Source of the DNA: Anthoceros angustus
Taxonomy: Eukaryota > Plantae > Anthocerotophyta
Direction: 5' to 3'
NCBI GenBank assembly: GCA_010909165.1
Contig: MU008186.1
Coordinates: forward strand, 1 to 64,000
Length of the DNA stretch: 64,000 bases
Position 1 is the first letter of the stretch. Each line of letters starts with the position of its first letter. Both the position numbers and the translations under genes were made by a program. Shown here piece after piece: positions 261-30,043 of this stretch. Under the pieces are notes generated by a model. That model worked only from the letters and a program-made list of their open reading frames with translations. It ran no database searches and had not been told where the DNA came from.

Positions 261-508
261 TGACGATTTATAGAGATAATGCAGATTAATTAAATCAGAA
301 AATAATTACATCATTGATAATCAAGAAAAGAACCAAAGTGTTTATGAGACTTGGACAACTTAACTAAAGCGAAAAGTCATGTCCGTTTCGCTAAAGGTCG
401 CAACCCTAATGAAAGGGTATATATAACTTAAGCTAAGTTATATGTGTGACTAATAACCCTAGGTTACTTAACATTATGATAACACCCTAAGTACTCATTA
501 CTTCATCA
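261..508 (-). repeat. 3' LTR of the copia element
   Basis: TGACGATTTATAGAG...CTTCATCA, near-identical to 6568-6818. The adjacent CTCCCACTT reads as a purine tract (PPT) on the minus strand. Confidence 0.93.
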
Positions 509-6500: not shown

Positions 6501-6556
6501 TATCCTGAAATGCACAATTTGATGTGCATTCTTTAGAATGCAAACTGCATCATCAT

Positions 6557-6567
6557 GCTCGATACCA
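6557..6567 (-). promoter_or_regulatory. Primer-binding site (tRNA-iMet type)
   Basis: Minus strand reads TGGTATCGAGC directly after the LTR, which is canonical TGGTATCAGAGC lacking one A. Confidence 0.85.
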
Positions 6568-6818
6568 TGACGATTTATAGAGATAATGCAGATTAATTAA
6601 AGATAAAATAATTACATCATTGATAATCAAGAAAAGAACCAAAGTGTTTATGAGACTTGGACAACTTAACTAAAACCGAAAAGTCATGTCTGTTTCTAAA
6701 GGTCGCAACCCTAATGAAAGGGTATATATAACTTAAGCTAAGTTATATGTGTGACTAATAAGCTAACCCTAGGTTACTTAACATTATGATAACACCCTAA
6801 GTACTCATTACTTCATCA
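6568..6818 (-). repeat. 5' LTR of the copia element
   Basis: Direct repeat of 261-508 with a few substitutions and indels. Confidence 0.93.
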
Positions 6819-7500
6819 GTGTCCAGGCGTGTTCACATGGAAGTGCGGTAGCTTGTCAGTCTTGATGACTTGTTGGGCATGCCTTCCCGATGCTAGCACA
6901 TCCTTGACAACATGATTAGGTCGATTGGTGGACGACCTCGTACACTTCAAATGTTCCAAGGGAGCAAGGTTAGTCCACATGGACCTCAACCTATGAGCTC
7001 TCGAACCAAATTGAGCTGCATCCAATAGTAGCTCCTGACCCAACACTCCTCGGATCGTGGCAAAATCCTCCCGACTTGCTTCTTCACGCATGCATCTTTG
7101 GCACATTTTCCAACATGTATCCACAATGCCTTTCTTGCCCTTTCTCGGATCAAGCGCAAGATCCTCATCGGGTCATAGAACAATGCCGCTCGTGGATCCT
7201 TGACCTTGATCTTGCCTCGCAGAGGATAGTCCTTGACACTCCCAACTGCGATGACAAGGTCCACCGGTTGCCAAGACAACTCAAATGGGACAACCCTATC
7301 ATGCGAACATCCATCGCCGCCTAGTAACCTTCACCGACTCCACACGTGAGGTTAGGGTACTCCCCATCAAGTCTCTTACGTGCTCGACACAACTTGCTTT
7401 TGGATCTAGGTCACAATGCACGATCTTCGCACTTTGATGCCACACTTTTAGCACCGCCAAGCCGATCGATGCCTCCAAAGAGTTCCATGAGCACTATGCC
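6819..7500 (-). pseudogene. DNMT3-like C5-cytosine methyltransferase domain, copy A (motifs I-VIII, truncated at the copia LTR)
   Basis: IVLMELFGGID (motif I), PVDLVIA-[frameshift]-WECQGLSSA (motif IV), ALFYD.MRILRLI, GYMLENV (motif VI), LDAAQFGSRAHRLRSMWTNL (motif VIII). Confidence 0.88.
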
Positions 7501-8086
7501 GCTTCCCGAGGTCGCCATGTGATGACCGGTGTTTAGGTCACAAGCAGGCTCAACCCTAGGCAAGAACTTACAGTTAGCCCTCATAGGACATTGGTCCTCT
7601 TGCACCATCCTCCACAACTTTTGCACGGCTCATTGCCGCATACCAGCCCGTCCCCCGACTTGAAGAACCTCCTCAGGGTGGTTGCAACCCTAGCTTGTCT
7701 TCCTCCTCCTCGTCGAAATCCTCCATCGTGTCGCTTGCGTTGTTAGACACGCTGCAGGTTCAAGCACGTATGGCGTGTCCTTCACCACGGCGCCAAACAC
7801 CGGTAGACGCTGCTGGCAATGAGGTTCTTATGATCCTTGCCATGCAAACCGCAGAGGGATGCGGCAATCCGCTCATCTTGGCTCAAATTTTCTCCACCGG
7901 GTCGATAGTAGACTATCTTCATCCACAAATCCACCATGACCTGTGTTTGTACAAAGCGTCGTCGAAGACATCAAATGTGTTTGCATCGGTGACCAGCGGT
8001 GTACCTCGACAAAGGTGAAGTCTCATCGCTCTTGGTTTGAATGAAACCTTCATTCTACCTTGTCACCTCAAAAGACATGCTCCGTG

Positions 8087-10154
8087 AAGTTTCTTAGCAT
8101 AGGGTTTGTCTCAACCCCATTTTGGCCCCAACCATCCGTAAATGCACATGTCTCATTTCTGTTTTTGATTTGCGAACCACCCATGCATCCGAGCCCAAAG
8201 AAGACCTAATGTGCCCACCGTCCGCACAAATGCGGACACACCTTTGTACCAAGTGGGATGATCGGCGACTTATGCTAAAGGAGTGCACAACGTCCCGACT
8301 TATACTCAAGAGGTGCAATACACGGGTTTGGAGAGGGTTGCGTCAATACTTGTGTAGGCAAGCACTGCCTGCTTGTGCACACTTGCCACCGCACCAACAC
8401 TCACATCAATTCTCTTTTCAAACCCGTGATTGAGCAATCCCGGATGGCGGGCATACCTGCGACCGGCCCCTCCGTGTCGGAGATAAGCCGCACTTAGATC
8501 CGCAGATTAGGCCTCGCGCAGAATTGGACAAGGTAAAGGATGGTGAGGCCTCCTCAACCGTTCTTGATCAAACTCTTGAGCTTACATTTCTTCTTGTCAA
8601 GTCCGTATCGCTTTCAACCTTAATCTATCCATGGGTGGCACATGGAGCAAGTCGATCTTAAATTCAAAATCTCTGGCGAAGCTTGGCTATAGTTCTGCCT
8701 GAACACCTAGCTGCCACACGTAGTGGGCGATAAAGGTATAGTCCTCCTTGAGCCTCACCGAAATACTCACCATTTGGTCAAAACCCACCGATGCCCTCTT
8801 CTTCAGATACTGCGGCTCACTAGGGCTCGCGGTGGCGAGCGGATGCTCTCTTATACTTGTGTTCGATCGCATCCGATGTGCTTTCATTACTCAAGGACAA
8901 ATCATCTATTCTATTTATTTTCTTGCTTCTCAAAACATTGTGAAACATTGTCGCCTTCAAAGGTTGGCCATTAGAAACCACCATCATACATGTCGAATTT
9001 TGGAAAATGTAGCTCATCTAGAAACCAAGGCCTATGCATCTATCGTGCATCAAACTCGAATGAGCGGACATTTGGCGCACCAATCAAAGAGATCCACCGC
9101 AAGTCAAGGGGCACATAGAGTAAGGCCAAAAGGTTTTACATGTTGTATACAAAGCGAATGTGGGAATATAACATCAACCAACAAATGATTTTCAAAAATA
9201 ATATTCATGACTTTACGCCTAGATACCGGATGATTTACAAATTTTTCAAACCACTAAAATCAACACTCCATCCTAGTATTGATACGCCTCTAGGTTGCTT
9301 AAGTGGAGTTGTTACAAAGTTTTCAAAGCGCCAAAACAAGCAAGCCATCCTAGTACTAATCGACCCAAGAGTGCATAACCGAAGTTCTAAAGCACCAAAG
9401 TCAAGCACCCCATCCTTCGATCCGACCCGGGTGCTTAACCTTGGAGTTCTTATGCCAAGCATCTACACTCTAATCAAACATATGCAAAGACAAACAATAT
9501 ATATACATTTGCGGACGTCCGCGCACTCCACCATTTCCATCTCACTGACGCCCACAAGATTGGGGTCTCAAAATCGCGGACGTCCGCAGCTTTTAGCAGA
9601 CTCGCCAATGTGCGAGCGTCCGGCGCATTGTTCCAATTCCTTCTATGTTTTCACTCTAACAATGGAGATCCTGTGGTTGTGTACTCAAAGGCACCGTGAC
9701 GCCCCGCTACTTTTAGAGTCGTAGTTTGGTCCTCTCGAGATGGCCATGATCGAGCTATCGGTTAATGTTCTCTCACAATTGCGCCGGACGTCCGCTGTTT
9801 CTTTTCGCTTAATTGCTAGTTGGTTACGGACGTCCGCAGCTTGGCTTGCGGACTAATTTTGTTTGGTTTGCCCTCTGTTCACCACCTAGGAAGTACTATC
9901 GCTGCGAAAGAGGTGTTTAGGATTCCTAGCACTTAAAAATCCTTGAAATCCTTCCTTGTGAAGGTGAAATCCATGAACCTTCTTGGCTTCAACCATTAGC
10001 GTAAGTATTCACGAGAAAATAACATGGTCAATGTCTTTCAAGACATGTCTAAAGAGTGGTTTTGCTAAAGATGATGCATTTTTGGCCTGGGTCATTTTTG
10101 GTCTTTAGGGACCCAAACCCCTTTAATGGAGAATAACCCCTATGCCGAGAGAGA
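8087..10154. mobile_element. Non-autonomous Mutator-like (TIR) DNA insertion in the gypsy protease
   Basis: Absent from the sister copy (empty site at ~19480-19500). Flanked by an imperfect ~9-10 bp duplication (CATGCTCCGTG / GACGCTCGTG). Imperfect terminal inverted repeats CTTAGCATAGGGTTTGTCTC versus reverse complement CTCGGCATAGGGGTTATTCTC. No transposase recognised. Confidence 0.6.
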
Positions 10155-12129
10155 CGCTCGTGGTCCCAATGTCCGGATCTTCCACTTGGTTTCATTTAAC
10201 CTTTCTTGGTGGAGACCCAACGCCTTCACTCTTCTTCCAACGATCACTACCGGTCCTGTCAATCATCACCCTCCTTGGTGCGAATCCATTGATTTCAATG
10301 TGCCTCTCCCGATTGTTGACCAAAGCCACCCCACTGCAAAGATTCCGCCTCCACAGAGATGCTTGGCTCGAGGTCAAGAAATGACATTGCTACCGTGGCA
10401 AATCTTGGACACTTGCTTGCCTTCAAGGTTGTCAACATCCGCCGAGTCAAACCACGACTTCCTTCACGCCAACCCCATGTCTTGTAGGTCAAACATGGCA
10501 TCTCCAAGCTTTTGTGCCATCGCTCTCCAAGAATCTGCATGGGTTTCTCCACATCGCCCACTGGACTTTGATGTTGTTCCCACAGCTGTTCTGCTGGCAA
10601 TGGCTCAAACGACTTTGGCATCTTGGCATAGGTTCGGAAGAGGATCCAAGCTTCCTTCCAAGTCTTCCGCCTGGTGTCAAGACATCCTCTTCTTCCTCTC
10701 GAGCTATCTTCTCTCGTAGTCGCCAGGTTTCTTCCCTGCCCTTGGATCCGGTCACGCCATGTATCCAAGCTTGTGCTCATCTTCTTCGCCTCCGATGATG
10801 CCGCTCTCCTTGATCTTCGCCGCACCAACTTCTCCAGCTTTGCAGGCGCACGAGCTGTCCATCGCCTCTTGATGCTTCCGTTTCTTTTGTCCACGGGACT
10901 TCGCCGGCCTCCTCCACGCGCCTTTGTTTTTCGCCGATTTTGTGGATGAGGTTGGCGAGATGCATTGGCCGGGTTGCCGCCGAGCAACCCAGAGGCCGCA
11001 CCCGGATGCTTCTCCCAACACGCCGCTTCATTGTGCCCGACCCCAGCCTAGGGCATGGCTCCTCACCCTTGACCTCCGAATGCATGCTCGCACTCATGAG
11101 GGAATGGTCCATCCCTCGGCACCTCACGAGGGGCTCGCCACTGGGGTCGGCTTGTCTCGCCGAGCTCCTCCACTGACCTCCGCTTGGCCATGTCGCCCAC
11201 CACCCTACTTATGTTGGAGTAATCACTTGCAACAAAGACGAGAGAAAGTGTCGTGGGCCCTATCTTGTCATCTCGTACACTTCCTTGAGGGTGTAGTGTT
11301 GCCCTTCGTCGGCACCGCTTGTTGCACCTTCATGCACAACAGATATGGCAATGCCTCGCAAGTACTCAGCCACCGGTCACTGTGATCTTGGTGTCACGTA
11401 CCAATTGGTCGATTCTTGATAAGCCATCGCAGCCTCGCCTCGACTTCATCTTGAAGTGTGTCACCGAGATCTTCTCATCCGTGCTTGCATGAAACTCCAA
11501 AGATGTCAAACATCTCTTGATGGGATCGTGCCCACTTGCCACCGCCTCCGCTCGCACCGGGTTCCTTGGATCTTGAACGCTACTCACCGTCCTCCATGTG
11601 CGCCAACAAGCCTCACGTGCTCGCGATAGCACGCCAATGCTTCATCCCCAAGTACTTGGCATTTGGATGAAGCCGTATCGCTTTGTATCCGGTCTTCAAC
11701 TCCATCTCCGCACGCACCGCACCGTACTTCTCGATGAAGTCCTCCAGTGGCAAGGTACCCGCTCGTCCTGTGAACAACTCCATTCGATCCTTGTCTCCTC
11801 CCATCTTGACGACTCCTAAAGACAAGTCCTCCTCGCTGTCACTTCCAGGCTACACTTGGGTCAAAAACGTGAGCTGGGTGAGTTGGATAGCAAAGGCATG
11901 AGAACTCTAGAGTTAAACACCCGTGGGGTGAATCAGTACCTAGATAGGGTGCTAACCAATTTAGGAGTTTTGGACAGAAAGTGAAATCAAATGGACTGAT
12001 GACATACCCATGCCTATCCACTTCTCCCTTATCCCTTGAACTGGGCCCAAGAGTAAAATACTCTTGTTTCTCCTTGGTTGGTTGGCCTTAAAGGCCACCC
12101 CTTGTGGAAACCTCGTTCCTCTCCTCTTG

Positions 12130-12305
12130 GTATGGGTTCTTCGCCTCCTTGGCCTTGACTTGGGCTTCTTCGCCTCCTCCTCCTTGGCCTTGACTTCTTC
12201 GCCTCCTCTTGGCCTTGACTTGGGCTTCTTCGCCTCCTCCTTGGCCTTGGACTTGGGCTTCTTGCCTCCTCTCCTTGGCCTTGACTTGGGCTTCTTCGCC
12301 TCCTG
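12130..12305. repeat. ~35 bp minisatellite in the element leader
   Basis: GGCCTTGGACTTGGGCTTCTTCGCCTCCTCTCCTT units, with sister arrays at 13490-13705 and inverted at 16890-17065. Confidence 0.9.
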
Positions 12306-12391
12306 GGCTTGGTCCTCTAGGCCTCAAGCCTTGGCACACTTTAGAGAGTCCCTTGCCTACTTGCTTAAAGAGCTAGTCACGAGCTGCACGC

Positions 12392-12510
12392 CCAGCACGC
12401 CTAGCACGGCCTAGCATCGCTTAGCATCACCTAGCATCGCCTAGCACGGCCTAGCATCGCCTAGCATCACCTAGCATCGCCTAGCATCACCTAGCATCGC
12501 CTAGCACGCC
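12392..12510. repeat. 10 bp tandem repeat (CCTAGCATCG)n
   Basis: Directly visible, with a sister array at 13785-13908. Confidence 0.9.
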
Positions 12511-13489
12511 CATCAGCGAACACGAGATCATAGCTTGTAACAAGAGGGATTAGCTCGCACGCCGTGGCACAAACACACCTCCCACAGAACAACACGCAAA
12601 TTCCTCACACATCGCCTCCTGAGTCATAGCCTCCTCACAACGCCTTGCATTGCATCTAGAGGACAAGCTATGATCCGAGCTTGTCCTCAATGGAAGGGTC
12701 TATATACATACTAAGATATATAGTATCGGCATATTCCTAAGATATCCTATTGGCATCAACATATGCTAAATATCCTAAGAATACACTATAATATGCAATA
12801 TGCCAAAGCATATTACTTGAACTTATCCACTATTGTATCCTAAGAATACACTATAATATGCAAGGAATATGCCAAAGCATATTACTTGAGCTTATCCACT
12901 TAGCTATTGCTAACAATATTTAATTAACACTAATCAATGGTTAATTAACTTAAGCACCTTAGATTAATTAACACTAATCAATGGCTAATAAACATAAGCA
13001 CCTTAGATTAATTAACACTAATCAGTAATTAACATAAGCATCTTAGATTAATTAACACTAATTACTTACTTAAAGATAAGTAATTAGATTAATTAATGCT
13101 AATTAAACACTAAACCCAAGTCACGAGATTAGTATCACACGGCATGACAAAGAACATGTATGTATGTGTGGGGTGGATGTCATGGTCCCATGAGCGATGA
13201 GTGCGGAATGAAGACAAGTCCTCCTCGTCACTTCAGCTACACTTCAAATTGCGGTGTGGTGGGTTTGGATAGCAAAGGCATGAGAACTCTAGAGTTAAAC
13301 ACGATGGGGGTGAATGATGATAGGGTGCTAACCAATTTAGGAGTTTTGGATGAAAGTGAAATCAAATGGATGATGACATACCCATGCTCATCCATCCCTG
13401 TGAATGGGGCCCAAGAGTAAAATACTCTTGTTTCTCCTTGGTTGGTTGGCCTTAAAGGCCACCCATAATAAACCTCATTCCTCTCCTTG

Positions 13490-13705
13490 GTATGGGTTCT
13501 TCGCCTCCTCTCCTTGGCCTTGGACTTGGGCTTCTTCGCCTCCTCTCCTTGGCCTTGGACTTGGGCTTCTTCGCCTCCTCTCCTTGGCCTTGGACTTGGG
13601 CTTCTTCGCCTCCTCTCCTTGGCCTTGGCCTTGGACTTGGGCTTCTTTGCCTCCTCTCCTTGGCCTTGGACTTCGGCTTCTTCGCCTCCTCTCCTTGGCC
13701 TTGGG
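13490..13705. repeat. 35 bp minisatellite, second unit
   Basis: Period of 35 bp at 13516, 13551, 13586 and 13621. Confidence 0.92.
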
Positions 13706-15070
13706 CTTGGTCTCTCTGGGCCTCAAGCCTTGGCACACTTTAGAGAGTCCCTGCTTGGCAAGGCTAGTGCCTCGCGTAGCCTGTCGCCTAGCATCGCCTA
13801 GCATCGCCTAGCATCGCTTAGCATCACCTAGCATCGCCTAGCATCGCCTAGCATCGCCTAGCATCACTAGCATCGCCTAGCATCGCCTAGCACGGCCTAG
13901 CATCGCCTGAGTCATAGCTTGTAACAAGAGGGATTAGCTCGCGTCGTGGCACAAACACACTCTCCCCACAAGAACAACACAAATTCCTCACACATCGCTC
14001 TCGGGTCATAGCTTTGGCCTCCTCAGCGTTGCATTGCATCTAGAGGACAAGCTATGATGATCAGCTTGTCCTCAATGGAAGGGTCTATATACATACTAAG
14101 ACCTGGTATCGGCATATTCCTAAGATATCCTATTATTGACGTATGCGGAAATATCCTAAGAATACACTATAATATGCAAGGAATATGCCAAAGCATATTA
14201 CTTGAACTTATCCACTCTATTGTATCCTAAGAATACACTATAATGCAAGGAATATGCCAAAGCATATTACTTGAGCTTATCCAGCTATTGCTAACATATT
14301 TAATTAACACTAATCAATGGTTAATTAACTTAAGCACCTTAGATTAATTAACACTAATCAATGGCTTAAACATAAGCACCTTAGATTAATTAACACTAAT
14401 CAATGCTTATTAACATAAGCATCTTAGATTAATTAACACTAATTACTTACTTAAAGATAAGTAATTAGATTAATTAATGCTAATTAAACACTAAACCCAA
14501 GTGCAGAGATTAGTATCACACGGCATGACAGCAACATGTATGTATGTGTGGGGTGGATGTCATGGTCCCATGAGCGATGAGTGCGGAATGAAGACAAGCG
14601 CAATTAAGGCTCAGCGACGAAGATCTCTCCGGGCGCGCGGGCGCGCACATGGCTCTTCGGAATCCGGGCTGGTGATTAAGATTGGCAACGGTGGAGGCTA
14701 CAAAGGGCAGGCAATCCGTCATTGACCGCGGATTGTTGATGTCTGGTTCAGGAGAACAGCCATACAGATCCCAAGCGCTCTCAAAACGTCTTGTGTGTGC
14801 GATTTTCAGCAGTGATGTGTGTAGGAGACGGTGACCGCTTAAAGACTGGATTTTTGCCATTTGCAGTTGTCATTGTGCGAGTGTCATTGTGCTTTACTTA
14901 GTCATGGTTGTGATTCACATGAGGTCCGTAAACAGATGATTCAATCGCTTGACAATTACCATGGTAGGGTAGTGTGGACCACGGACTCTCCCCTGGGGCA
15001 GGAAATGAGTTAGGTTTTGTTTTTTTCGTAGGCGTGGAGTAGAAAATAAGGCGGAAAGCAAGAAATAAGT

Positions 15071-15215
15071 CCGGAGTAGGTCGAGGGACTCCGGAGTAGG
15101 CCGAAGGACTCCGGAGTAGGCCGAAGGACTCCGGAGTAGGCCGAAGGACTCCGGAGTAGGCCGAAGACTCCGGAGTAGGCCGAAGGACTCCGGAGTAGGC
15201 CGAAGGACTCCGGAG
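15071..15215. repeat. 20 bp tandem repeat GGACTCCGGAGTAGGCCGAA
   Basis: About 7 units, each with the palindrome ACTCCGGAGT. Dispersed CTCCGGAG-like copies continue to ~15350. Confidence 0.92.
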
Positions 15216-15779
15216 CACACTCCGGAGGAGCTACGGACTACACTCTGGAGGGAGCCCGGACCGCACCCCGGAGTGCCCGGGGTAAGTCCGGACTACACTC
15301 CGGAGCCGGATGGATAAGTACGCCAGGTAAAGTAACTTAGGAGTCGGAGCGTATTTTAAACAGAGGGAGCCACGTGGACGGTACTGAGAGGTGGACGGGC
15401 ATGCAGCAGACCAGGACCGTAGGGTTGCCAGTGGGTTAGCGGTATTCACGCCCGGCGGCGGTAAGGCTAGAGTGGCGTGGCGAGTAAGCGGGCGTAAGGC
15501 GGGAGTAAGCCATGCAGCCTCCCGATTCAGGCGGCAAGAGCCGCCCTTCCAGCGGTTACTCTCGGAGTGGACCGGGCGGAGGTCATTCTTCCAAGCAACC
15601 TTGGCGGTTCTCGCCTTTGACTCGCGCTCAGACACCCGGCTCTCTGGCGTTGTCTTTTCGAGCGCTCAGGCACCCTCACGTGCGGCTCGACCTTGTGGTT
15701 GGGGCGACTGACACAGCGGCAGAAGAACATGAGATTGTTGAGTTTCAAGCCCCAACAGCGGAACAAGAGGAGCGCGGCG

Positions 15780-16830
15780 ATGGGACCCAAGAAAGCGGCG
15801 GAGGTGTGGGAGCCATGGCGCTTGGTGGAACGCATCATCGTCACCAAGCGCTACCCGGACTTCGGTCCTTGGCTGGAGGAGGTGGAGGAGTTGGTGGAGG
15901 CACCGGATATTTTCCGGTATGCCGGACCTTCGGCAGTCCCTAGTCCGGAGTACGCCCAAGATGCCGGTGGCCAACAAGGAGGTCCGCTCTAAGAACTCGC
16001 GGAGGACCCGGAGGTGGACTGTGGAGGTCCCGAGGCGGTTTACAACCGCCCGGAGGTAGGGAGTGGTTTGAGCCCCAGTGGTGCGAGGGAAGGTGGAGGC
16101 GCCGGCCCTCTGCGACGAGGCAGGATCCTCCAACGGGTGGTTGATGTCGGATCTCCTGGACAGGAGGGTACGATCAGTGGCGAAGATCATCGTCCACTAG
16201 AATATGCTCACCAAGGTGGACCACCTCGGGGATAATCTGCTGGTGTTCCTCCACGACTTACAGAGGGGGAAACGCGCTGACTGGGGCAAGATCATCTTTG
16301 CCCGAATCAACTAGGAGGCCCGGAAGCTGAGAAGTGAGAAGCCACCCCCGTCGGCGTTGTCGCCGTTCATCATCCATGTGTGGGGGCACATGAACCTCCT
16401 GAAGGAGGGGGAAGAGGAGCGGGCGCTACGGAAGGGGTTGGCCGCCCTACCAGAGGCAGAGCGGGAAGGAAGAAGGCAAGAGGCCGAGGTCTCAGGCCGG
16501 ACAGCAGTGCAGGAGGAGGAGGATCGGGACTCCATACGTCTGGAACGGACCCCCTCGCCACCCAGGGAAGTATGGGAAGACATTCCCGCTTCCCTCCTCT
16601 TGGTTCCCCCACCGGAACACCTTGCGCAGGAGGAGGTAGCCACAGAAGGAGCCGCGGTTGCGACGACGGAGCCCAGCGGCCACTGAACCTCACTGACTCG
16701 GCGAAGCGAAAAGCGGAAGATGGGCCACTACCGCCGCCCAGACTGACCTGTTCCCTTGCCCCTACCAACGGAGTGGTAGGAAGCGGAGGAGGCCGTGCGG
16801 AGGGCAGAGAGGGACGCTGCCCTCCGAAAG
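15780..16830 (+). pseudogene. Degenerate GC-rich ORF remnant of unknown function, probably transposon-associated
   Basis: Frameshifted coding-like pieces: MGPKKAAEVWEPWRLVERII..., RADWGKIIFARIN*EARKL...LSPFIIHVWGHMNLL..., then an acidic/Pro-rich tail. Confidence 0.4.
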
Positions 16831-17716
16831 AGGCCCAAGGCCAAAGGAGAGGCCCAAGTCCCAAGGCTTGAGGCCTAGAGAGGGGACCAAGTCCAAGGCC
16901 AAGGAGAGGAGGTGAAGAAGCCCGAGTCCAAGGCCAAGGAGAGGAGGCAAAGAAGCCCAAGTCCAAGGCCAAGGAGAGGAGGCGAAGAAGCCCAAGTCCA
17001 AGGCCAATGAGAGTAGGCAAAGAAGCCCAAGTCCAAGGCCAAGTAGAGGAGGCGAAGAAGCCCATACCAAGGAGGACAACAAAGGCATAAGAACTCTAGA
17101 GTTCAAGGGTGGGGTGGATCGGTAAGTCGGATGGGGTGGCTAACTGGAGTTTCAAGTGAAATCAAATGGTGACATACCCATGTCTATCCACCCCTTATCC
17201 CTTGGAACTGGGCCCTGAGTAAAACCAATCTTTTTTCTCCGGTTGGTTGGCCTTAAAGGCCTGCATATGGAGGCCTCATTCATGATCTAAGTTAGCGGTG
17301 TGTTAACCTTGATTAAGGGTTTGATCTAGCCACTAACCGCCTGGAGTGCATGCTGGACACACTCGATCCGGACGGAGCTACCAACCAGCAAGTCCATCGA
17401 GGGTCGAAGTCCCGACCAAGAGAAGTGCGAACACCTCGATTTTGGTACCCGAAGGACGGAGGAACCCGGCGACAATCAACAATCTTTGAAGGATCATGGT
17501 GGCAACACACAAGACACGTTAGTCTTTGCCGGACAACTCGGTAGCGGCGAGGAGGACTTGTCTCTTGGAGTCGTCAAGATGGGAGGAGACAAGGATCGAA
17601 TGGAGTTGTTCACGGAGACGGCGGGCACCTTGCCACCGGAGGACTTCATCGAGAAATGCGGTGTGCGGAGATGGAATTGAAGACCGGATACACGGCGATC
17701 GGCTTCATCCAAATCT

Positions 17717-18257
17717 TACTTGGGGATGAAGCATTGGCGTGCTATCGCGAGCACAAGGCGAGGTTGTTGAGCACATCGGAGGACCGATGGCTTCAAGCTC
17801 GAAGGAACCAATCGAGCAGGCGGTGGCGAGTGGGCACGATCCCATCGAAGAGATGTTTGACATCTTCCTGGAGTTTCCTGGCGGATGAGAAGATCTCGGT
17901 GACACTTCAAGATGAAGTCGGTGATGCGAAGATGGCTTATCGAAGAATCGACCGGTTGATGACACCAAGATCATGAGTATGGTGGTGCGGTACTTGGGGA
18001 TGAAGCATTGGCGTGCTATCGCGAGCACAAGGCGAGGTTGTTGGCCACATCGGAGGACCAGTGGCGATTCAAGCTCCGTGGAACCAATCGGCAGCGGGGT
18101 GGCACCAGTGGGCACGATCCCATCGAGATGTTTGACATCTTAGGTGGAGTTTCCTGCACGGATGAGAAGATCTCCGGTGACACTTCAAGATGAAGTCGCG
18201 AGGCTGAAGATGGCTTATCGAAGAATCGACCGGTTAGTGACACCAAGATCATGAGTG
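17717..18257 (+). repeat. Tandem ~275 bp duplication within gag
   Basis: TACTTGGGGATGAAGCATTGGCGTGC...CACCAAGATCATGAGT at 17717-17978 and 17991-18257. Confidence 0.88.
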
Positions 18258-20063
18258 ACCGGTAGAAGTACTTGCGAGCATTGCCATATGCATGCGGAAG
18301 GTGCAACAAGCGGTGCACGACGAAGGGCAACACTACACCCTCAAGGAAGTGTACGAGATGGTGACAAGATAGGGCCCTGACACTTTCTCTCGTGTTGCAA
18401 GTGATTACTCCGGCACAAGTAGGAGTGGTGGACGACATGGCCAAGCGGAGGTCGAGTGGAGGAGCTCGGCGAGACAAGCCAGCCCACACGGCCCAAGTGG
18501 CGAGCCCTGCGTGAGGTGCCGAGGGGCGGACCATTCCCCTCATGAGTGCGAGCATGCATTCGGAGGAGTCAAGGGTGAGGAGCCATGCCCTAGGTGTGGG
18601 AATGGGCACAATGAAGCGGCATGTTGGGAGAAGCATCCGAATTGCGGCCTACGGGTTATCGAGCGGCAACCCGGCCAATGCATCTGCGTCAACCTCATCC
18701 ACAAAATCGGCGAAGAGCAAAGGCGGTGGAGGAGGCACTGGAAGTCCGTGGACAAAAGAAAGCGGGAAGCATCAAAGAAGGCGATGGACGGCTCGTGGCA
18801 CGCCTTGCAAAGCTGGAAGTTGGTGCGGGCGAAGATCAAGGAGAGCGGTTCATCATCGAGGGCGAAGAAGATGAGCACAAGCTTGGATACATGGCGGTGA
18901 CCCGGATCCAAGGGCAGGGAAGAAACCTGGCGCTACGAGAGAAGATAGCTCGGAGGAAGAAGAGGATGTCTTGACACGCGGTCACGGAAGACGGAAGCTT
19001 GGGGATCCTCTTCCGAACCTATGCCAAGATGCCAAAGTCGTTTGAGCCATTGCCAGCAGAACAGCTGGAGCAACATCAAAGTCAGTGGGCGATGTGGAGA
19101 AACCCATGCAGATTGACGGAGACGATGGCACAAAAGCGGAGATGCCATGTTTGACCTACAAGACATGGGGTTGGCGTGAAGGAAGTCGGGGGTTTGACTC
19201 GGCGGATGTTGACAACCCTTGAAGGCAAGCAAGTGTCCAAGATTTGCCACAGGGTGGCAATGATGTCATTCTTGACCTCAGCCAAGCATCTCGTGGAAGC
19301 GGAATCTTTGGCAGTGGGAGTGGCTTTGGTCAACAATCGGAGAGGCACATTGAAATCAATGGATTCGCACCAAGGAGGTGTTGATTGACAGAGCACGGTG
19401 ATCGTTGGAAGAAGAGTGAAGGAAGCGTTGGGTCTCCACCAAGAAAGGTTGAAGGAAACCAAGTGGAAGATCCGACCGCAGGACCACGAGCATGTGTTGG
19501 GGTGACAAGGTACAAGCTGAAGGTTTCATTCAAACCAAGAACAGACTTCACCTTTGTCGAGGTACACCGCTTGGTCACGATGCAGACATTTGATGTCTTC
19601 TTTGGGAGCGGACGCTTTGTACAAACACAGGTCATGGTGGATTTGTGGGCGGAGGCAGTCTACTATCGACCGGTGGAAAATGGAGCAAAACCGATGAGCG
19701 GATTGCCCGCATCCCTCTGCGGTGCATGGCAAGGATCATGAGAACCTCATTGCCAGCGTCTACCCGATGTTTGGCGCCGTAGTGAAGGACACGCCATACG
19801 TGCTTGAACCTCTTGGCGTGTGTCTAACAACCCTGATGGAGGATTTCGGCGAGGAGGAGGAAAACAAGCTAGGGTTGCAACCACCCTCGGAGGAGGTTCT
19901 TCAAGTCACCGGACGGTGGTGGTAGCAATGAGCCGTGCAAAAGGCTGGAGGATGGTGCAAGAGGACCCGGTGCCCTATGAGCCGGAGAACTGCTAAGTTC
20001 TTGCCTAGGGTTGAGCTGTTTGTGACCTAAACACCCGGTCATCACATGGCGACCTCGGGAAGC

Positions 20064-20970
20064 ATAGTGCTCGTGGAACTCTTTGGAGGCATCGATCGGC
20101 TTGGGCGGTGCTAAAGTGTGGCATCAAAGTGCGAAGATCGTGCATTGTGACCCGGATCCAAAAGCAAGGATTGTGTCACGAGCGTAAGAGACTTGATGGG
20201 GAGTACCTAACCTCACGTGGGAGTCGGTGAAGGGTTACCGGGGCTGCCGATGGATGTTCGCATGATAGGGTTGTCCCATTTGAGTTGTCTTGGGCAGCGG
20301 TGGACCTTGTCATCGCAGTTGGGAGTGTCAAGGACTATCCTCTGCAGGCAAGGGTCAAGGTCGAAGGATCCACGACGGCATTGTTCTATGACCGATGAGG
20401 ATCTTGCGCTTGATCCGAGAAAGGGCAAGAAAGGCCTTGTGGATACATGTTGGAGAATGTGCCGGCATGCATGAGCGTGAAGAAGCAAGTTCGGAGGACT
20501 TTGCCACGATCCGAGTGTTGGGTCAGGAGCTTCTATTGGATGCAGCTCAATTTGGTTCGAGGGCTCATAGGTTGAGGTCCATGTGGACTAACCTTGCTCC
20601 CTTGGAACATTTGAAGTGTGCGAGGTCGTTCACCAAGCGACCTAATCATGTTGTCAAGGATGTGCTAGCATCGGGAAGGCATGCCCAACAAGTCATCAAG
20701 ATTGACAAGCTGCCGCACTTCCCACACGAACACTGGACACCCCATGGCGGCTTGGTCAACCTTTGTGGTCAAGTCCAAGTCTTACGCCTTGGGAACCATG
20801 GCCCGGCGTTGTGGTGGGCAGACATGGCGAGGCCTTGGGAGAAAGCCACAGAGAGGAGTTGGCCATGGGATTTGATGCCGAGCCACGAAGACAGGGAGTG
20901 AGAAGGAACGGTGTCGATTGCTTGGGCAAGCATTTGACGTGAACATGATGACTGGTTGTTTAGCGGAGTC
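20064..20970 (+). pseudogene. DNMT3-like C5-cytosine methyltransferase domain, copy B (motifs I-X, frameshifted)
   Basis: IVLVELFGGID, VDLVIA-[frameshift]-WECQGLSSAGKGQG, GYMLENVP, LDAAQFGSRAHRLRSMWTNL, ELAMGF, ERCRLLGQAFDVNMM, in the colinear non-permuted order of DNMT3. Confidence 0.9.
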
Positions 20971-21614
20971 GCTTACCAACTTCAAACCAAGAAGGCGGGG
21001 TTGAAGCGGTTCGGTGGGTGAAGGACATTCCGGCACTCGCATCTCAACAGGAGAAGGCGAGTTTGGAGGGCAAGGAGGAGCACGTAGAGGCGTGCAAGCC
21101 ATCGAGCCACAACCACATGAGTGGTTAACAGGCGAGTTGAAGAGCAATCAGCGTCGGCTAAAGGAGTTGTTGGAGGCATCGCGACATGTGTTTGCTTTCA
21201 CGCTTGCGGAGATGGGGAAGTACACCAAAGGGAAGTTCCACATAGAACTAATCAAGAATGAACCGATGAACGGATTGCCCGCATCCCTCTGCACTGCATG
21301 GCAAGGATCATGAGAACCTCATTGCCAACAGGCTACCCGGTGTTTGCGTGAGTGAAGGCCATACGTGCTTGAACCTCTTGGCGTGTGTCTAACCGAATCG
21401 ACTGATGGAGGATTTCGAGGAGGAGGAAGACAAGCTAGGGTTGCAACCACCCTCGGAGGAGGTTCTTCAAGGACGGATGGTGGATCGAGCAATGAGCCGT
21501 GCAAAAGCTGGAGGATGGTGCAAGAGGACCAAGTCCTATGAGCCGAGAGAACTAAGTTCTTGCCTAGGGTTGAGCCTGTGACCTAAACACATCACATGGC
21601 GACCTCGGAAGAGC

Positions 21615-22500
21615 ATAGTGCTCGTGGAACTCTTTGGAGGCATCGACGGCCGGCTAAAGTGTGGCATCAAAGTGCGAAGATACGTGCATTGTGACCCGGA
21701 TCCAAAAGCAAGGATTGTGTCAGCGCGTAAGAGACTTGATGGGGAGTACCTAACCTCGACGTGGGAGTCGGTGAAGGGTTACGCCGATGGATGTTCGCAT
21801 GATAGGGTTGTCCCATTTGAGTTGTCTTGGGCAACCGGTGGACCTTGTCATCGCAGTTGGGAGTGTCAAGGACTATCCTCTGCAGGCAAGGGTCAAGGTC
21901 GAAGGATCCACAACAGATTGTTCTATGACCGATGAGGATCTTGCGCTTGATCCGTAAAGGGCAAGAAAGGCCTTGTGGATACATGTTGGAGAATGTGCAG
22001 ATGCATGAGCGTGAAGAAGCAAGTTCAGGAGGACTTTGCCACGATCCGAGGAGTGTTGGGTCGAGCTTCTATTGGATGCAGCTCAATTTGGTTCGAGGGC
22101 TCATAGGTTGAGGTCCATGTGGACTAACCTTGCTCCTTGGAACATTTGAAGTGTGCGAGGTCGCTCACCAAGCGACCTAATCATGTTGTCAAGGATGTGC
22201 TAGCATCGGAAGGCATGCCCAACAAGTCATCAAGACGACAAGCCGACTTCGTGAACACGCCTGACACCCCATGGCGGCTTGGCCAACCTTTGTGTCCAAG
22301 TCCAAGTCTTACGCCTTCAGAACCATGGCCCGGCGTTGTGGTGGATGACATGGCGAGGTTTTGGGAGAGCCAACAGAGAGGAGTTGGCCATGGGATTTGA
22401 TGCCGAGCCACAAGACACCGGAGTGACCGAGAAGGAACGGTGTCGATTGCTTGGGCAAGCATTTGACGTGAACATGATGACTGGTTGTTTAGCTACCGGA
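21615..22500 (+). pseudogene. DNMT3-like C5-cytosine methyltransferase domain, copy C
   Basis: Same motifs as copy B. ORF track shows LVELFGGID..KCGIKVRRYVHCD, WECQGLSSAGKGQG..RLFYD and REELAMGFDAEPQDTGVTEKERCRLLGQAFDVNMM. Confidence 0.9.
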
Positions 22501-23120
22501 GTCGCTTACCAACTTCAAACCAAGAAGGCGGGGTTGAAGCGGTTCGGTGGGTGAAGGACATTCCGGCACTCGCATCTCAACAGGAGAAGGCGAGTTTGGA
22601 GGGCAAGGAGAGGAGAGCAGAGGAAGGCAAGCCATCCGAGCCACAACCACATGAGTGGTTAACAGGCCGAGTTGAAGAGCAATCACAGCCGCCTAAAGGA
22701 GTTGTTGGAGGCATCGCGACATGTGTTTGCTTTCACGCTATGAGATGGGGAAGTACACCAAAGGGAAGTTCCACATAGAACTAATCAAGAATGAACCAAG
22801 GTTCGGAGGCAGCTCAAGAAGGCAAGAAGAAAATGGCGAGCAACGGTGGGGAGAGTAGTCCACATGGCCCATAAGGATCTTGAAGACAAGCCTCCACTCA
22901 TGGACAAGGTTCATAACCTCCGGACGACATTCCGAAGGAGATTGGTTTTGTGCACAATGCGCTACATGAGGTGCGTACGTGTGTAGTCCTACTAATGATA
23001 ATGTTTTGACTTAGAGTCTCACATTATCGGGGGATTGGTTGCACCTATATATCTGCGTATTAGATTTGTTTGCTTGGTTGTTGGTCGAGGAAGTGCTTAT
23101 GAATTCAAGTGCTTACCTCG

Positions 23121-23725
23121 TGCGGCCATGTGATGTGATACTAATCTGCACTTGGGTTTAGTGTTTGATTAGCATTAATTAATCTAATTACTTATCTTTA
23201 AGTAAGTAATTAGTGTTAATTAATCTAAGTGCTTATGTTAATTAAGCATTGATTAGTGTTAATTAAACATGGTTAGCAATAGCTAAGTGGATAAGCTCAA
23301 GTAATATGCTTTGTGTTGCATATTATAGTGTATTCTTAGATACAATAGCTAAGTGGATAAGCTCAAGTAATATGCTTTGGCATATTCCTTGCATATTATA
23401 GTGTATTCTTAGGATATTTTTGGCATATCGATGCCAATAGGATATCTTAGGAATATGCCGATGCCAGGTCTAGTATATATAGACCCTTCCATTGAGGACA
23501 AGCTCGGATCATAGCTTGTCCTCTAGATATGCAATCAAGGGTGTTGTGAGGAGGCCAAAGCTATGACTCAGGAGGGCGTGTGAGGAATTTGCGTGTTGTT
23601 CTCGTGGGGAGGTGTGTTTGTGCCACGACGCTACTCCCTCCTTGTTATTGCACCTATATATCTGCGTATTAGATTTGTTTGCTTGCTTGTTTGTCGGCGG
23701 CGAATTCAAGTGCTTATAGGCGACA
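23121..23725 (+). repeat. 3' LTR of the gypsy-like element
   Basis: Reverse complement of 12520-13150 and 13910-14530. AT-rich repetitive U3, TATA (23474-23482), hairpin (23494-23523). The start TGTCATGCC (seen in the minus copies) and end GGCGACA are inverted termini. A partial duplicate of the LTR end lies at 23039-23117. Confidence 0.8.
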
Positions 23726-23744
23726 AAGCCGGACCCCAGAATGA

Positions 23745-23870
23745 CCCGAGGTCCGGACCCCGAGGTCCGGACCCCGAGGTCCGGACCCCAGTCGAGACCG
23801 GACCCAGGTCCGGACTCAGAATACGGACCCCGAGGTCCGGGCCAGACCAGGATCGGACCCCGAGGTCCAC
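23745..23870. repeat. 14 bp repeat GGACCCCGAGGTCC array
   Basis: Period of 14 bp at 23755, 23769 and 23783, with degenerate copies to ~24000. Confidence 0.85.
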
Positions 23871-24426
23871 TCGAGGCAAGGAGTCATCACCGACCTGAGA
23901 GGAGCAACCTTCCGGGGACCCTCGAGGCCCCGGACCAGGTCCGGACTCGGGAGGCCAGGGGAGCTCACCGACCGCCAAGAGGAGCAACCTTCCGGGGACC
24001 CGCAGTAGGGCCTACCAAATGAGGCAAGAGAGGAAGGTGAGGAGGATTTGGTGGTGACCGCCGTTGTTAGGGCCACGGTGGCCCAACCTCGGCAGGAGTC
24101 TCGAAGGGAAAGGCCCACTCGCTGGATCATTCGTTCTGGGGCGCCATGGAGCGGGATTGGGCCACCAGAGTTGAGGCGGAACCAAGGGCACTCCCAGCCC
24201 CATCGCCGACGACGTAGATAGGCGGGTTAGGAAGGAAATTGATATCATTATTCATTCCTAACCATTACCTAGAAGGAGTCTCTTAATTCATGATCTATAA
24301 CCACGTTTGCAAGAACTTGATACATTTCCCTCTATATTGAGTGGTGGCGTTCTTCAACCAAGGTATATCTATCGCCCTATAGAGGGCATTGGTGACGCAA
24401 TTTTCAGGACGGCTTCGGATGCAGGG

Positions 24427-26988: not shown

Positions 26989-29089
26989 CTAATAAAAAGG
27001 GAAAACATCATCTAAAACTTCATCACATAAAAGAAACTTCTCATCATACATAATGCTTGACGAAGGCACAGAGGTAGCATGATTAGTTGCAGTGGCCGGG
27101 GAACACTTAGACGAAGATGGACCACTCGGAAGCATCTGTATACCGGCCAGTCTTGGATTGAAAGGACTTGTTGAATTAGGCTTTCGCTTGAGAAGCTCTT
27201 GGTACATCTTGAGCGTCTCAGACTTTCCATCCTCATCTTCACCTGGAGTATTTCCAGCATGAGGTATATGCATGTCAGGCGCATGAAGCATTTGCACATA
27301 TTTATCCAGTCTTCCATTGAAAGGACTCGTTGACATAAATGAAAGCTCCTCCTGTTCCTCGATTAGCTCAGTTTCTCCATCTGGAATGTTTCTAGCACTC
27401 TCATCATGCAGAGTTTGAGTGTTCATAGCATTCCCATCCTGCAAAGTTCTCGTTGAAGAAGATGAAGCATAATAGTTAGTTGCTGCAGACCAAATAGGAA
27501 GAGATGATGATGCAGTATACTTAGGAACATATAGTGGATCTATACGAGCATCTAAGTCTTGTGGAGTGTTCATAGCATTCTCATCCTGCAAAGCTCTCGT
27601 TGAAGAAGATGAAGCATAATAGTTAGTTGGTGCAGTCCAAATAGGAAGAGATGATGATGCGGTATACTTAGGAACATATAGTGGATCTATAAGAACATCT
27701 AAGTCTTGTGGAGTGTTCATAGCATTCTCATCCTGCAAAGTTCTTGTTGAAGAAGATGAAGCATAATAGTTAGTTGGTGCATACCAAATAGGAAGAGATG
27801 ATGATGCAGTATACTTAGGAGCATACAGTGGATCTATATGAGGATCTAAGTCTTGTGGAGTGTTCATAGCATTCTCATCCCGCAAAGTTCTCGAAGAAGA
27901 TGAAGCATAATAGTTAGTTCGCAGCACCAAATAGGAAGAGATGATGATGCAGATACTTAGGAACATATAGTGGATCTATACGAGCATCTAAGTCTTGTGG
28001 AGTGTTCATAGCATTCTCATCCCGCAAAGCTCTGAAGAAGATGAAGCATAATAGTTAGTTAGTGGGTCAAATAGGAAGAGATGATGATGCGGTATACTTA
28101 GGAACATATAGTGGATCTATAAGAACATCTAAGTCTTGTGGAGTGTTCATAGCATTCTCATCCTGCAAAGTTCTTGTTGAAGAAGATGAAGCATAATAGT
28201 TAGTTGGTGCATACCAAATAGGAAGAGATGATGATGCAGTATACTTAGGAGCATACAGTGGATCTATATGAGGATCTAAGTCTTGTGGAGTGTTCATAGC
28301 ATTCTCATCCTGCAAAGTTCTCGTTGAAGAAGATGAAGCATAATAGTTAGTTGCTGCAGACCAAATAGGAAGAGATGATGAAGCATAATAGTTAGTTGGT
28401 GGAGACCAAATAGGAAGAGATGATGAAGCATAATAATTAGTTGGTGGAGACCAAATAGGAAGAGATGATGATGCAGTATACTTAGGAACATATAATGGAT
28501 CTATATGAGCATCTAAGTCTTGTGGAGCATCCGGAAGAACAAGTTGTGGAGGCCTCGGCGGAAGAACAAATTGTGAAGGCCTCGGCGTAAGAACAAATTG
28601 TGGAGGCCTCGGCGGAAGAACAAGTTGTGGAGGCCTCTGCGGAAGAACAAATTGTGGAGGCCTCGGCGGAAGAGCAAATTGTGGAGGCCTCGGCGGAAGA
28701 ACAAATTGTGGAGGCCTCAGCGGAAGAACAAATTGTGGAGGCCTCGGTGGAAGAACAAATTGTGGAGGCCCCGACGGACAAATGATGGGAAGCTTAGCGT
28801 GGCATCCACTTGGAGCATTCGGAAGAAGAGGTCGGGGAGTGTTCTGTGGACGAATAACAGGAAGCTTTGCAGGGCGTTCACCTGGAGCATTCGGGAGAAG
28901 AGGTCGGGGAGTCCTCTGTGGACGGATAACCTGAAGCTTTGCCGGGCGTCCACTTGGGGCATTCGAAAGAAAAGATCGGGGAATCCTCCCCTGAGTACGC
29001 GGACGCTTGGGGATGCCTCCTTGTGGAACATCTGGCTGTGGTTTTTGTGGAGCTTGACTTGTCATCGGATCAGGTAGGGCTGCAATCAT
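26989..29089 (-). CDS. Repeat-built Pro/Ser-rich orphan protein, frameshifted near 27900-28070 (gene or pseudogene)
   Basis: ORFs 28067-29089 and 26989-27966 contain ~23 aa repeats, 9 aa repeats (PPRPPQFVL) and about seven ~50 aa repeats (PQDLD..IDPLYVPKYTASSSLPIW..TNYYASSSSTRTLQDENAMNT), with an acidic-aromatic C-terminus. Confidence 0.55.
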
Positions 29090-30043
29090 GCCAGGGCGTA
29101 AGTTAAGTTAGCCTTGGACATATCAAAAACAATTTGTAGAAGAATGAGTCAAATCGGAGAATGAAATATTTAAAAATATAACAGAGCAACACCCTATGAT
29201 GCAATCCATAAAAAATGAAAATCTAAAACAAAGCATCGCAAAGGTTGTACCAGAAGAAGCCAAATGAATAGCAAGAGATGGATATCCAAACCATTGGACT
29301 GCCTCATCATATATAGTCGAAAAATACGCAAGAAGTTATGATTAACTCGCTGGATGTTTCAACTTCTCGAGGAGTCTATATTATTTTTAATATAAAGATA
29401 AAATAAAATCTCTTGTTTAGAAGTGTGAAAAGAATTCAATGGAAACAAAAAAACTAATTTTTGTTTTTTTGACATCCCGCAGATTAGAATCCCGAGCAAG
29501 AAAAGCCTAAGAGCTAGAACTTTGCTGCGAAGGCCGTCGACGACCCCACACCATCAAAACAAATGCTGACCATACACTACCCCTACCCTATCAAAAACAA
29601 CCGAAACACGAGAAGTATGTGACTCTCGACTACCACTCTCTCCTAAACTCCTAAACGCAAAGAGGTTATTCAACATATTCCACAACTTCGAATCAAACAA
29701 GGAGGAGGTATCCATCCAAGCCCTGCAAATTCCCTTCCCACGCCATGTCAAGAGCATGAGTCTTTAAACGCAAGGTTGGGATAATTTGGGCATCCGTATC
29801 CTCCATGGAGATACCATCCCACCACATCGCATTATGTATTGCGCGCTTGGTGGACGCATGTAACATGGCAAATGGGGCGGGTTAGGGTTAGGGTTAGGGC
29901 TTGATGGACGACAGCACATGGCGCGGAAGGGCCAGGGTGGGTTGGCCGGATGAGGAGGGTATAAAGCAGCTCATGATTGGGTTTGTCTGCCAGGCTCGCG
30001 GAGCTGGGCAGCTGCACGTGAAGGCGTGAAGGCGGAATGCGCG

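Follow-up and report, generated by a model that had tools for sequence, protein, structure and literature searches.

A predicted DNMT3-type cytosine methyltransferase in a multi-copy split-repeat Gypsy element of a land plant

Introduction

Cytosine methylation is the main route by which plants silence their transposons, and since it serves this purpose, an element that brings its own methylase would turn the defence around. What kind of element might do this in a land plant, and what could it use the enzyme for? The question is raised by the first 64,000 nucleotides of contig MU008186.1 of Anthoceros angustus (assembly GCA_010909165.1), the whole of which is called the window here. A sequence-only reading of this DNA had proposed a long terminal repeat (LTR) retrotransposon at 17540-23725 that encodes a DNMT3-like methyltransferase between its protease and its reverse transcriptase (RT). 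We find that this element, copy A, is by its sequence a member of a multi-copy Ty3/Gypsy family with an internal deletion, and that a predicted DNMT3-type methyltransferase stands in it between the protease and the linker that precedes the RT. A second, interrupted element in the window, element BC, carries the same domain.

Results

The methyltransferase domain

All motifs named in the sequence-only reading were recovered in copy A: ELFGGI (20076), WECQG (20320), MLENV (20447), DAAQFG (20539), AHRLR (20563) and RCRLLG (20909). Over all six frames of the window, ELFGGI, WECQG and DAAQFG occur three times each and are confined to the element copies. A profile built from 85 full-length domains of intact relatives was aligned to the DNA in a frameshift-aware read-through with an X at each break. 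It matched segment A1 of copy A at 234 bits (profile positions 3-329 of 337), segment A2 at 244 bits (5-337) and segment C of element BC at 194 bits (1-249). By comparison, six shuffles scored 15-18 bits and the reverse strand scored 20; over all controls, whether shuffled, reversed or taken from the opposite strand, the range was 15-20 bits. The claim of a colinear, non-permuted set of C5-methyltransferase motifs therefore stands.

The catalytic residues, namely the cysteine of motif IV, the glutamate of motif VI and both arginines of the R-x-R of motif VIII, are present in A1, A2 and C. The motifs follow the canonical order I to X, and a DRM-type permutation, with motifs VI-X before I-V, is ruled out for the window. 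No PWWP, ADD or DUF3444 domain was recognised beside the methyltransferase. The check for PF00145 was answered in part: direct Pfam scans of 16 stop-free pieces did not return this family, whereas in the ESM Atlas 28 of 30 matches of the stop-free piece 21582-21932 were PF00145 clusters (best score 0.95). Word-based homology searches with single pieces gave no match, and sequence searches of the PDB with single pieces gave nothing meaningful. The misses in the Pfam scans and the word-based searches are explained by the stop-free pieces being too short.

Copy A holds the methylase twice, in a 1.57-kb tandem duplication of methylase and linker. Its two segments differ by 3 isolated substitutions over ~300 anchored codons. 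The tandem duplications of the elements, this one included, may be real or an assembly stutter, no junction of theirs being among the joints listed.

Relatives and family placement

A full HMMER scan with the piece 20392-20898 returned 179 proteins at E <=0.001, 150 of them listed. From these 150 we picked 27, mostly for their length, and scanned 30 more besides. RT, RNase H or integrase was found in 23 of the 27, and PF00145 in 12. Among 174 fetched proteins, a set that includes near-duplicates, the methyltransferase is fused to parts of Pol in one open frame in 76. It lies after RNase H or before integrase in 63 (order RH-MT-INT, where RH is RNase H, MT the methyltransferase and INT the integrase) and after the protease (PR) or before the RT linker in 13 (order PR-MT-RT); 97 further proteins are methylase-only pieces, and 1 is without methylase. 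Such a series of fusions is not what a one-off captured host fragment, the case set against its own claim by the sequence-only reading, would leave behind. P0159 carries a CCHC knuckle, protease, PF00145, RT, RNase H and integrase in a single open reading frame (ORF), and the same order is seen in part in P0162 and P0165. The integrase of the relatives is of the DDE type (rve and Integrase_H2C2), not a tyrosine recombinase, and belongs to the region deleted in copy A. Relatives of the order RH-MT-INT end in a PHD finger; P0159 shows none. Pfam scans of the relatives contained no DUF3444. A G-patch was seen in the relative P0110 and a Tudor domain in P0104.

The catalytic residues are nearly invariant over the 85 relatives (cysteine in 83, glutamate in 85, each arginine in 84). 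In 49 of them an E precedes the motif IV cysteine and in 29 a P, both in intact ORFs, so the WECQ of the window is a family trait. A profile of 19 relatives ranked DNMT3A (2.5e-22) and DNMT3B (~1e-18) above DRM (3e-12 to 4e-8) and M.HhaI (5e-7), in agreement with the earlier description of the domain as DNMT3-like and unlike DRM. The term DNMT3-type is used here on the strength of this ranking and of the literature. The structure model of the relative P0154 (predicted local distance difference test, pLDDT, 79) had only DNMT3 chains among the matches listed.

In a tree of 79 rows (8 PR-type, 23 of 55 RH-type, 45 undetermined and 3 from the window; no outgroup, quick LG+G4 model), the two orders fall on opposite sides of a branch with a Shimodaira-Hasegawa-like approximate likelihood ratio test (SH-aLRT) value of 99. 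The window rows fall on the PR-MT-RT side, their placement within it being unsettled. A DNA pattern search gave 0 matches in metagenome contigs, and searches of viral contigs and prokaryote genomes gave 0 as well. One short metagenome locus, L001, was also seen, and a last homology search yielded 16 relatives.

Anatomy of copy A

Upstream of the methyltransferase, the sequence-only reading had seen Gag with a CCHC knuckle and then a D(T)G protease. The knuckle was found and a protease profile rises well above its null (Table 1); in element BC the N-terminal part of the protease alone scores 31 bits. The D-T-G triad, however, is interrupted in copy A and element BC alike, and the similarity of the Gag-like region to the Gag of relatives is no better than that of shuffles, so that the label Gag is used because of the knuckle and its position only. 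A 278-bp tandem duplication (17717-18256) lies inside this region.

Downstream, the Gypsy-type pre-RT linker was confirmed, but the RT expected behind it is missing from copy A. A motif scan found no RT core motif anywhere in the window, RNase H and integrase are missing as well, and matches of the Pol proteins of relatives in a tblastn search of the window were limited to the methylase segments. One contig of run X3 departs from the window at 22798 and continues in frame like the RT start of relatives. What had been called one colinear polyprotein remnant is colinear indeed, with no intron-sized gap, but no ORF joins the parts and each methylase segment has 11-14 frameshifts.

One contig of run X1 (depth 15) joins the linker (21177) to the tail (22812) on opposite strands, hinting at a partly inverted copy elsewhere. 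The tail contains no chromodomain motif and no Pfam match, and a chromodomain considered for it was dropped in favour of a weak PHD-like half. A conserved leaky stop after the methylase (TGA at 22552 and a matching A1 site in one frame) was considered as well and is not supported; run X2 has other letters at 22552, and the neighbouring frame is open. An Rfam scan of positions 1-26000 gave 0 matches.

Table 1. Features of copy A and of element BC in the window
Feature	Position	Strand	Remark
Copy A
35-bp tandem repeats of the 5' region	16887..17064	+	also in element BC; copy A lacks its 5' A repeat
Gag-like region, frameshifted	17579..18700 (end approximate)	+	by position and CCHC knuckle at 18508
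aspartic protease	19330..19740 (start approximate)	+	profile 48 bits against null of 16 over 19398-19740
methyltransferase segment A1, motifs I-X	20049..20965	+	234 bits; 14 frameshifts
pre-RT linker 1	21116..21268	+	49 bits against 13
tandem duplicate of 19689-21264	21261..22797	+	real or assembly stutter
methyltransferase segment A2	21606..22518	+	244 bits, ESM Atlas; 11 frameshifts
pre-RT linker 2	22650..22798	+	by profile; RT, RNase H and integrase absent past 22798
possible C-terminal half of a PHD finger, weak	22934..22966	+	22 bits against shuffled maximum of 16.5
split repeat B1	23039..23106	+	matches B2 over 49 bp at 96% and in one more block of 15 bp
split repeat A2, very high copy	23115..23647	+	the LTR of the sequence-only reading
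split repeat B2	23648..23706	+	matches B1
Element BC
5' repeat A1, no B beside it	13920..14531	-	
Gag and N-terminal protease	10156..11836	-	
continued: C-terminal protease and methyltransferase motifs I-VIII (7518-6819)	6819..8082	-	194 bits

Split repeats and element BC

The plain LTR supposed to end copy A is instead a split repeat, B1-A2-B2, in which a block of ~60-70 bp stands on either side of a 530-bp repeat. The long A repeat stands without B at the 5' end of element BC. Pieced together from copy A and element BC, the repeat layout is A1...B1-A2-B2, which is DIRS-like.

The three copies in 17 kb of the sequence-only reading come down to two elements. Copy A has the methylase twice, and copies B (11836-10156) and C (8082-6819), which meet at element position 19488-19491, make up one element split by a 2.07-kb insertion. 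This insertion (8083-10155) lies inside the protease, is flanked by a duplication of 4 bp, has ends that resemble each other weakly in inverted orientation, and is likely a DNA transposon. The repeat and untranslated region of element BC form a unit that is tandemly doubled (11819-13218 and 13211-14598). At its other end, element BC is cut by an element at 261-6818 on the reverse strand with 250-bp direct repeats (261-508 and 6568-6818; 95%), which we take to be Copia-like from its motifs. No target duplication of this element was seen, and no continuation of element BC was found beyond it at 1-260.

Copy number and frameshifts

The amplified family proposed earlier is borne out by contig depth. 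Over the methylase, the summed contig depth, which is not a copy number, is 416-782 in run X1 and 580-3142 in run X2, against ~11-13 and 8-11 on host genes. The bin with the A repeat reaches 10,530 (X1) and 37,200 (X2), the A repeat being ~15 times deeper than the element interior. Run X2 comes from a different organism, with ~4% divergence in COG4 (120 of 3,122 letters), and it shows high depth too, so that two relatives share the element family. This suggests dozens to hundreds of element copies in two related organisms. Run X3, which splices two GT..AG introns of COG4, has short contigs at depth 2-6 that cover protease and methylase; they are a weak hint of element transcription, since DNA can be in the run.

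Whether the breaks in the reading frames are real bears on how intact the family is. Indel events between copies amount to 0.8-1.9 per substitution and are mostly of 1-2 bp. The comparison of A1 with A2 gives 22 transitions and 19 transversions. Many small insertions and deletions separate the short-read contigs from the window (>200 rows for 17000-24000), and the host genes of the same window have long open frames. Most of the frameshifts are likely unpolished long-read errors in repeats, and the family is therefore likely younger and more intact than it looks.

Discussion

What the methyltransferase may do

As a matter of general Gypsy biology, the polyprotein is packaged and is cut by the protease of the element. 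We propose, at a probability of roughly 0.55, that the locus represents a multi-copy split-repeat Gypsy element of a land plant whose putative DNMT3-type enzyme probably methylates newly made DNA copies of the element itself. Full-length members would have the order Gag-PR-MT-RT-RH-INT of the intact relatives, perhaps with a terminal PHD finger. Their polyprotein would be packaged, and the protease would free the methyltransferase inside the particle. There the enzyme would lie beside naked double-stranded complementary DNA (cDNA) and would probably act on it, likely at CG, because no chromatin-reading domains accompany it. New copies would thus arrive pre-marked like host transposon DNA, and copy A could be mobile only with RT and integrase from another copy. 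Methylation of cDNA has been proposed before by de Mendoza et al., who made the proposal for DIRS elements (PMC5890265).

Several results weigh against this proposal or against the evidence behind it. The isolated changes between A1 and C, at few sites, are 5 synonymous and 8 non-synonymous ones. The ratio of observed to expected CpG is 0.73-0.88 in the element and 0.61-0.84 in host genes, with no extra depletion in the element. Phage C5-methylases match one relative at 25-35% identity, and the name DNMT3-type comes from a ranking, the tree being without host DNMT3 or DRM. In the account of de Mendoza et al., the Klebsormidium Gypsy domain had no activity in yeast, a result that its authors called inconclusive (PMC5890265). 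The depth values do not count copies. That the three methylase read-throughs needed no stop is a soft count, the aligner being able to evade stops by a shift of frame, and breaks common to all three segments exist and could be real. The X1 contigs show 10-13 gap letters on 2-kb host stretches too, which speaks against long-read error as the source of the breaks. No intact copy from the host was seen, no whole-genome search having been made.

The inactivity in yeast, the missing CpG footprint and the PHD finger at the end of many relatives, which points to chromatin contact, would all suit an element built as described whose domain does its work only once integration is over, on the new copy or the chromatin of the host, or else binds nucleic acid and leaves it unmethylated. 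A binding-only role is hard to reconcile with near-invariant catalytic residues, no targeting domain was recognised, and the domain sits in a polyprotein that would be packaged with the cDNA; we consider this account unlikely, if worth keeping in mind. A further account, which we think improbable, is decay: the breaks would be real, and the family in this host would carry the domain as a passenger that it has stopped using. Besides the frameshifts, some of them common to all three segments, such decay would explain the nested insertions, the loss of RT, RNase H and integrase and the fact that no synonymous excess is shown. Against it, indels match or outnumber substitutions, A1 and A2 show little transition bias, the short-read contigs differ from the window in the same kind of small indel, and every catalytic motif is kept in all segments that reach it.

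The deletion in copy A takes RT, RNase H and integrase only and leaves the 3' repeats whole, and the excess depth of the A repeat would imply many deleted derivatives. Copy A might accordingly belong to a non-autonomous subfamily that keeps Gag, protease and methyltransferase and supplies or exploits the methylase in trans. We give this little credence: a single such junction was seen, the X3 contig goes on from the linker into what looks like the beginning of RT, and solo repeats explain the depth of the A repeat equally well. Hardly credible, finally, is a one-off capture of a host DNMT3 or DRM fragment or of a bacterial or phage methylase. The phage matches to one relative would speak for it, but the near relatives are all of retroelement type (76 of the 174 fused to Pol, the 97 methylase-only pieces having the same profile), the motif order is unpermuted and no DUF3444 was found.

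Comparison with known systems

The kinship in kind to the Klebsormidium element that the sequence-only reading had suggested holds, a non-permuted DNMT3-type domain standing between protease and RT linker. KnitGypsy-Dnmt3 of Klebsormidium nitens likewise has a non-permuted DNMT3-related domain in a Gypsy Pol and combines DIRS-like repeats with Gypsy domains (PMC5890265). Its domain is described there as intronless; that of the window has no intron-sized gap but is frameshifted, and one ORF is seen in the relatives only. Unlike KnitGypsy-Dnmt3, the present family has a land-plant host and apparently far more copies, and copy A is without RT, RNase H and integrase. This comparison was made by description; it does not include the algal domain order, and the tree contains no named K. 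nitens sequence.

A Gypsy Pol of the order RT-RH-DNMT-INT-PHD (KAF8056149.1, Scenedesmus sp. PABB004), which we call chlorophyte-type by extrapolation from one cluster with a species name, has a methyltransferase of the same subfamily (~35-37% identity to the window read-through) and the same W-E/P-C-Q motif IV. Its domain lies between RNase H and integrase and falls on the opposite side of the tree. The DNMT3 genes that non-flowering streptophytes have as host genes share the DNMT3-type non-permuted catalytic domain, but, as described by Yaari et al. (2019; PMC6453930), have a C-terminal DUF3444; the domain of the window has none, is followed by a pre-RT linker and lies within a polyprotein. 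The host DNMT3 of Klebsormidium is reported to be multi-exonic (PMC5890265).

The split direct repeats A1-B1-A2-B2 are those of PAT and Ngaro (PMC4157794), and SymbioDIRS-Dnmt3 has the same repeat layout and carries a Dnmt3 as well. These three have a tyrosine recombinase, whereas the relatives of the window element have an rve (DDE) integrase. The Dnmt3 domains of SymbioDIRS were reported to methylate CG in yeast (PMC5890265). EpiLTRs of Cymbomonas and Euglena (bioRxiv 10.64898/2026.05.21.726589) are, like the present element, LTR elements with a cytosine methyltransferase; their domain is described as the sister group of DNMT4 and is accompanied by an adenine methylase and a chromodomain, unlike that of the window.

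The element is of a known kind, and its land-plant host is a real range extension. A Gypsy form with Dnmt3 has been described from one alga, Klebsormidium (PMC5890265), and according to Morozov et al. (2019; PMC6338049) land plants 'such as tracheophytes' have no transposons that encode a methylase. In the 2018 survey, Selaginella moellendorffii is listed with 10 methylase genes and Physcomitrella with 9 (PMC5890265). The pertinent passages of later papers (including bioRxiv 10.64898/2026.05.21.726589) name 'streptophytes' only and no land plant, and passages of PMC5750206, PMC8075897, PMC6317226, PMC9516144, PMC9477723 and PMC10952607 (Table S3 of the last excluded) do not mention such an element. 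No land-plant description was found in the literature searched, most subscription journals, figures and bioRxiv supplements being outside its scope.

A wider scenario is offered tentatively, and we do not expect all of its parts to hold. An ancient green-lineage clade of split-repeat Gypsy elements might have carried with it, all the way from algae to land plants, a methylase of DNMT3 type that is active and sits at two positions of Pol. It might still be amplifying here, with dozens to hundreds of copies that pre-mark their own cDNA, and perhaps uses a DDE integrase on split-repeat ends by an undescribed route. If true, embryophytes would have a transposon-encoded de novo methylase; were the host a lycophyte, this would moreover be the first vascular-plant example. 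A high-copy family in a land plant makes the purpose of the domain testable in plants with genetics, and split repeats combined with a DDE integrase raise the question of the insertion route.

Host genes and surroundings of the elements

Judged by its genes, the host is a streptophyte with land-plant-type genes, which does not make it a vascular plant. An exact look-up of 5 host proteins matched none in the collection searched. At 33217-61005 lie a TAA/alliinase-type aminotransferase, COG4, a short glyoxalase, an intronless MAPK-like kinase, a TrkA-C/CitMHS sulfate-type transporter and a plant F-box gene, for which all listed clusters are from Streptophyta. The ratio of observed to expected CHG is 0.3-0.7 in all transposon parts (6819-23647) and 1.0-1.5 in four host genes, uncorrected for codon use; such depletion is as expected after CHG methylation by the host. 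The flanks of copy A (15000-16850 and 23707-24400) are GC-rich and contain tandem repeats of 20 bp and 14 bp as well as fragments of broken ORFs with no Pfam match; they possibly belong to another element that replaced the 5' end of copy A. Repetitive ORFs at 26989-29107 on the reverse strand consist of 147-, 45-, 27- and 72-bp units without Pfam match, and the 147-bp units differ from each other by substitutions only.

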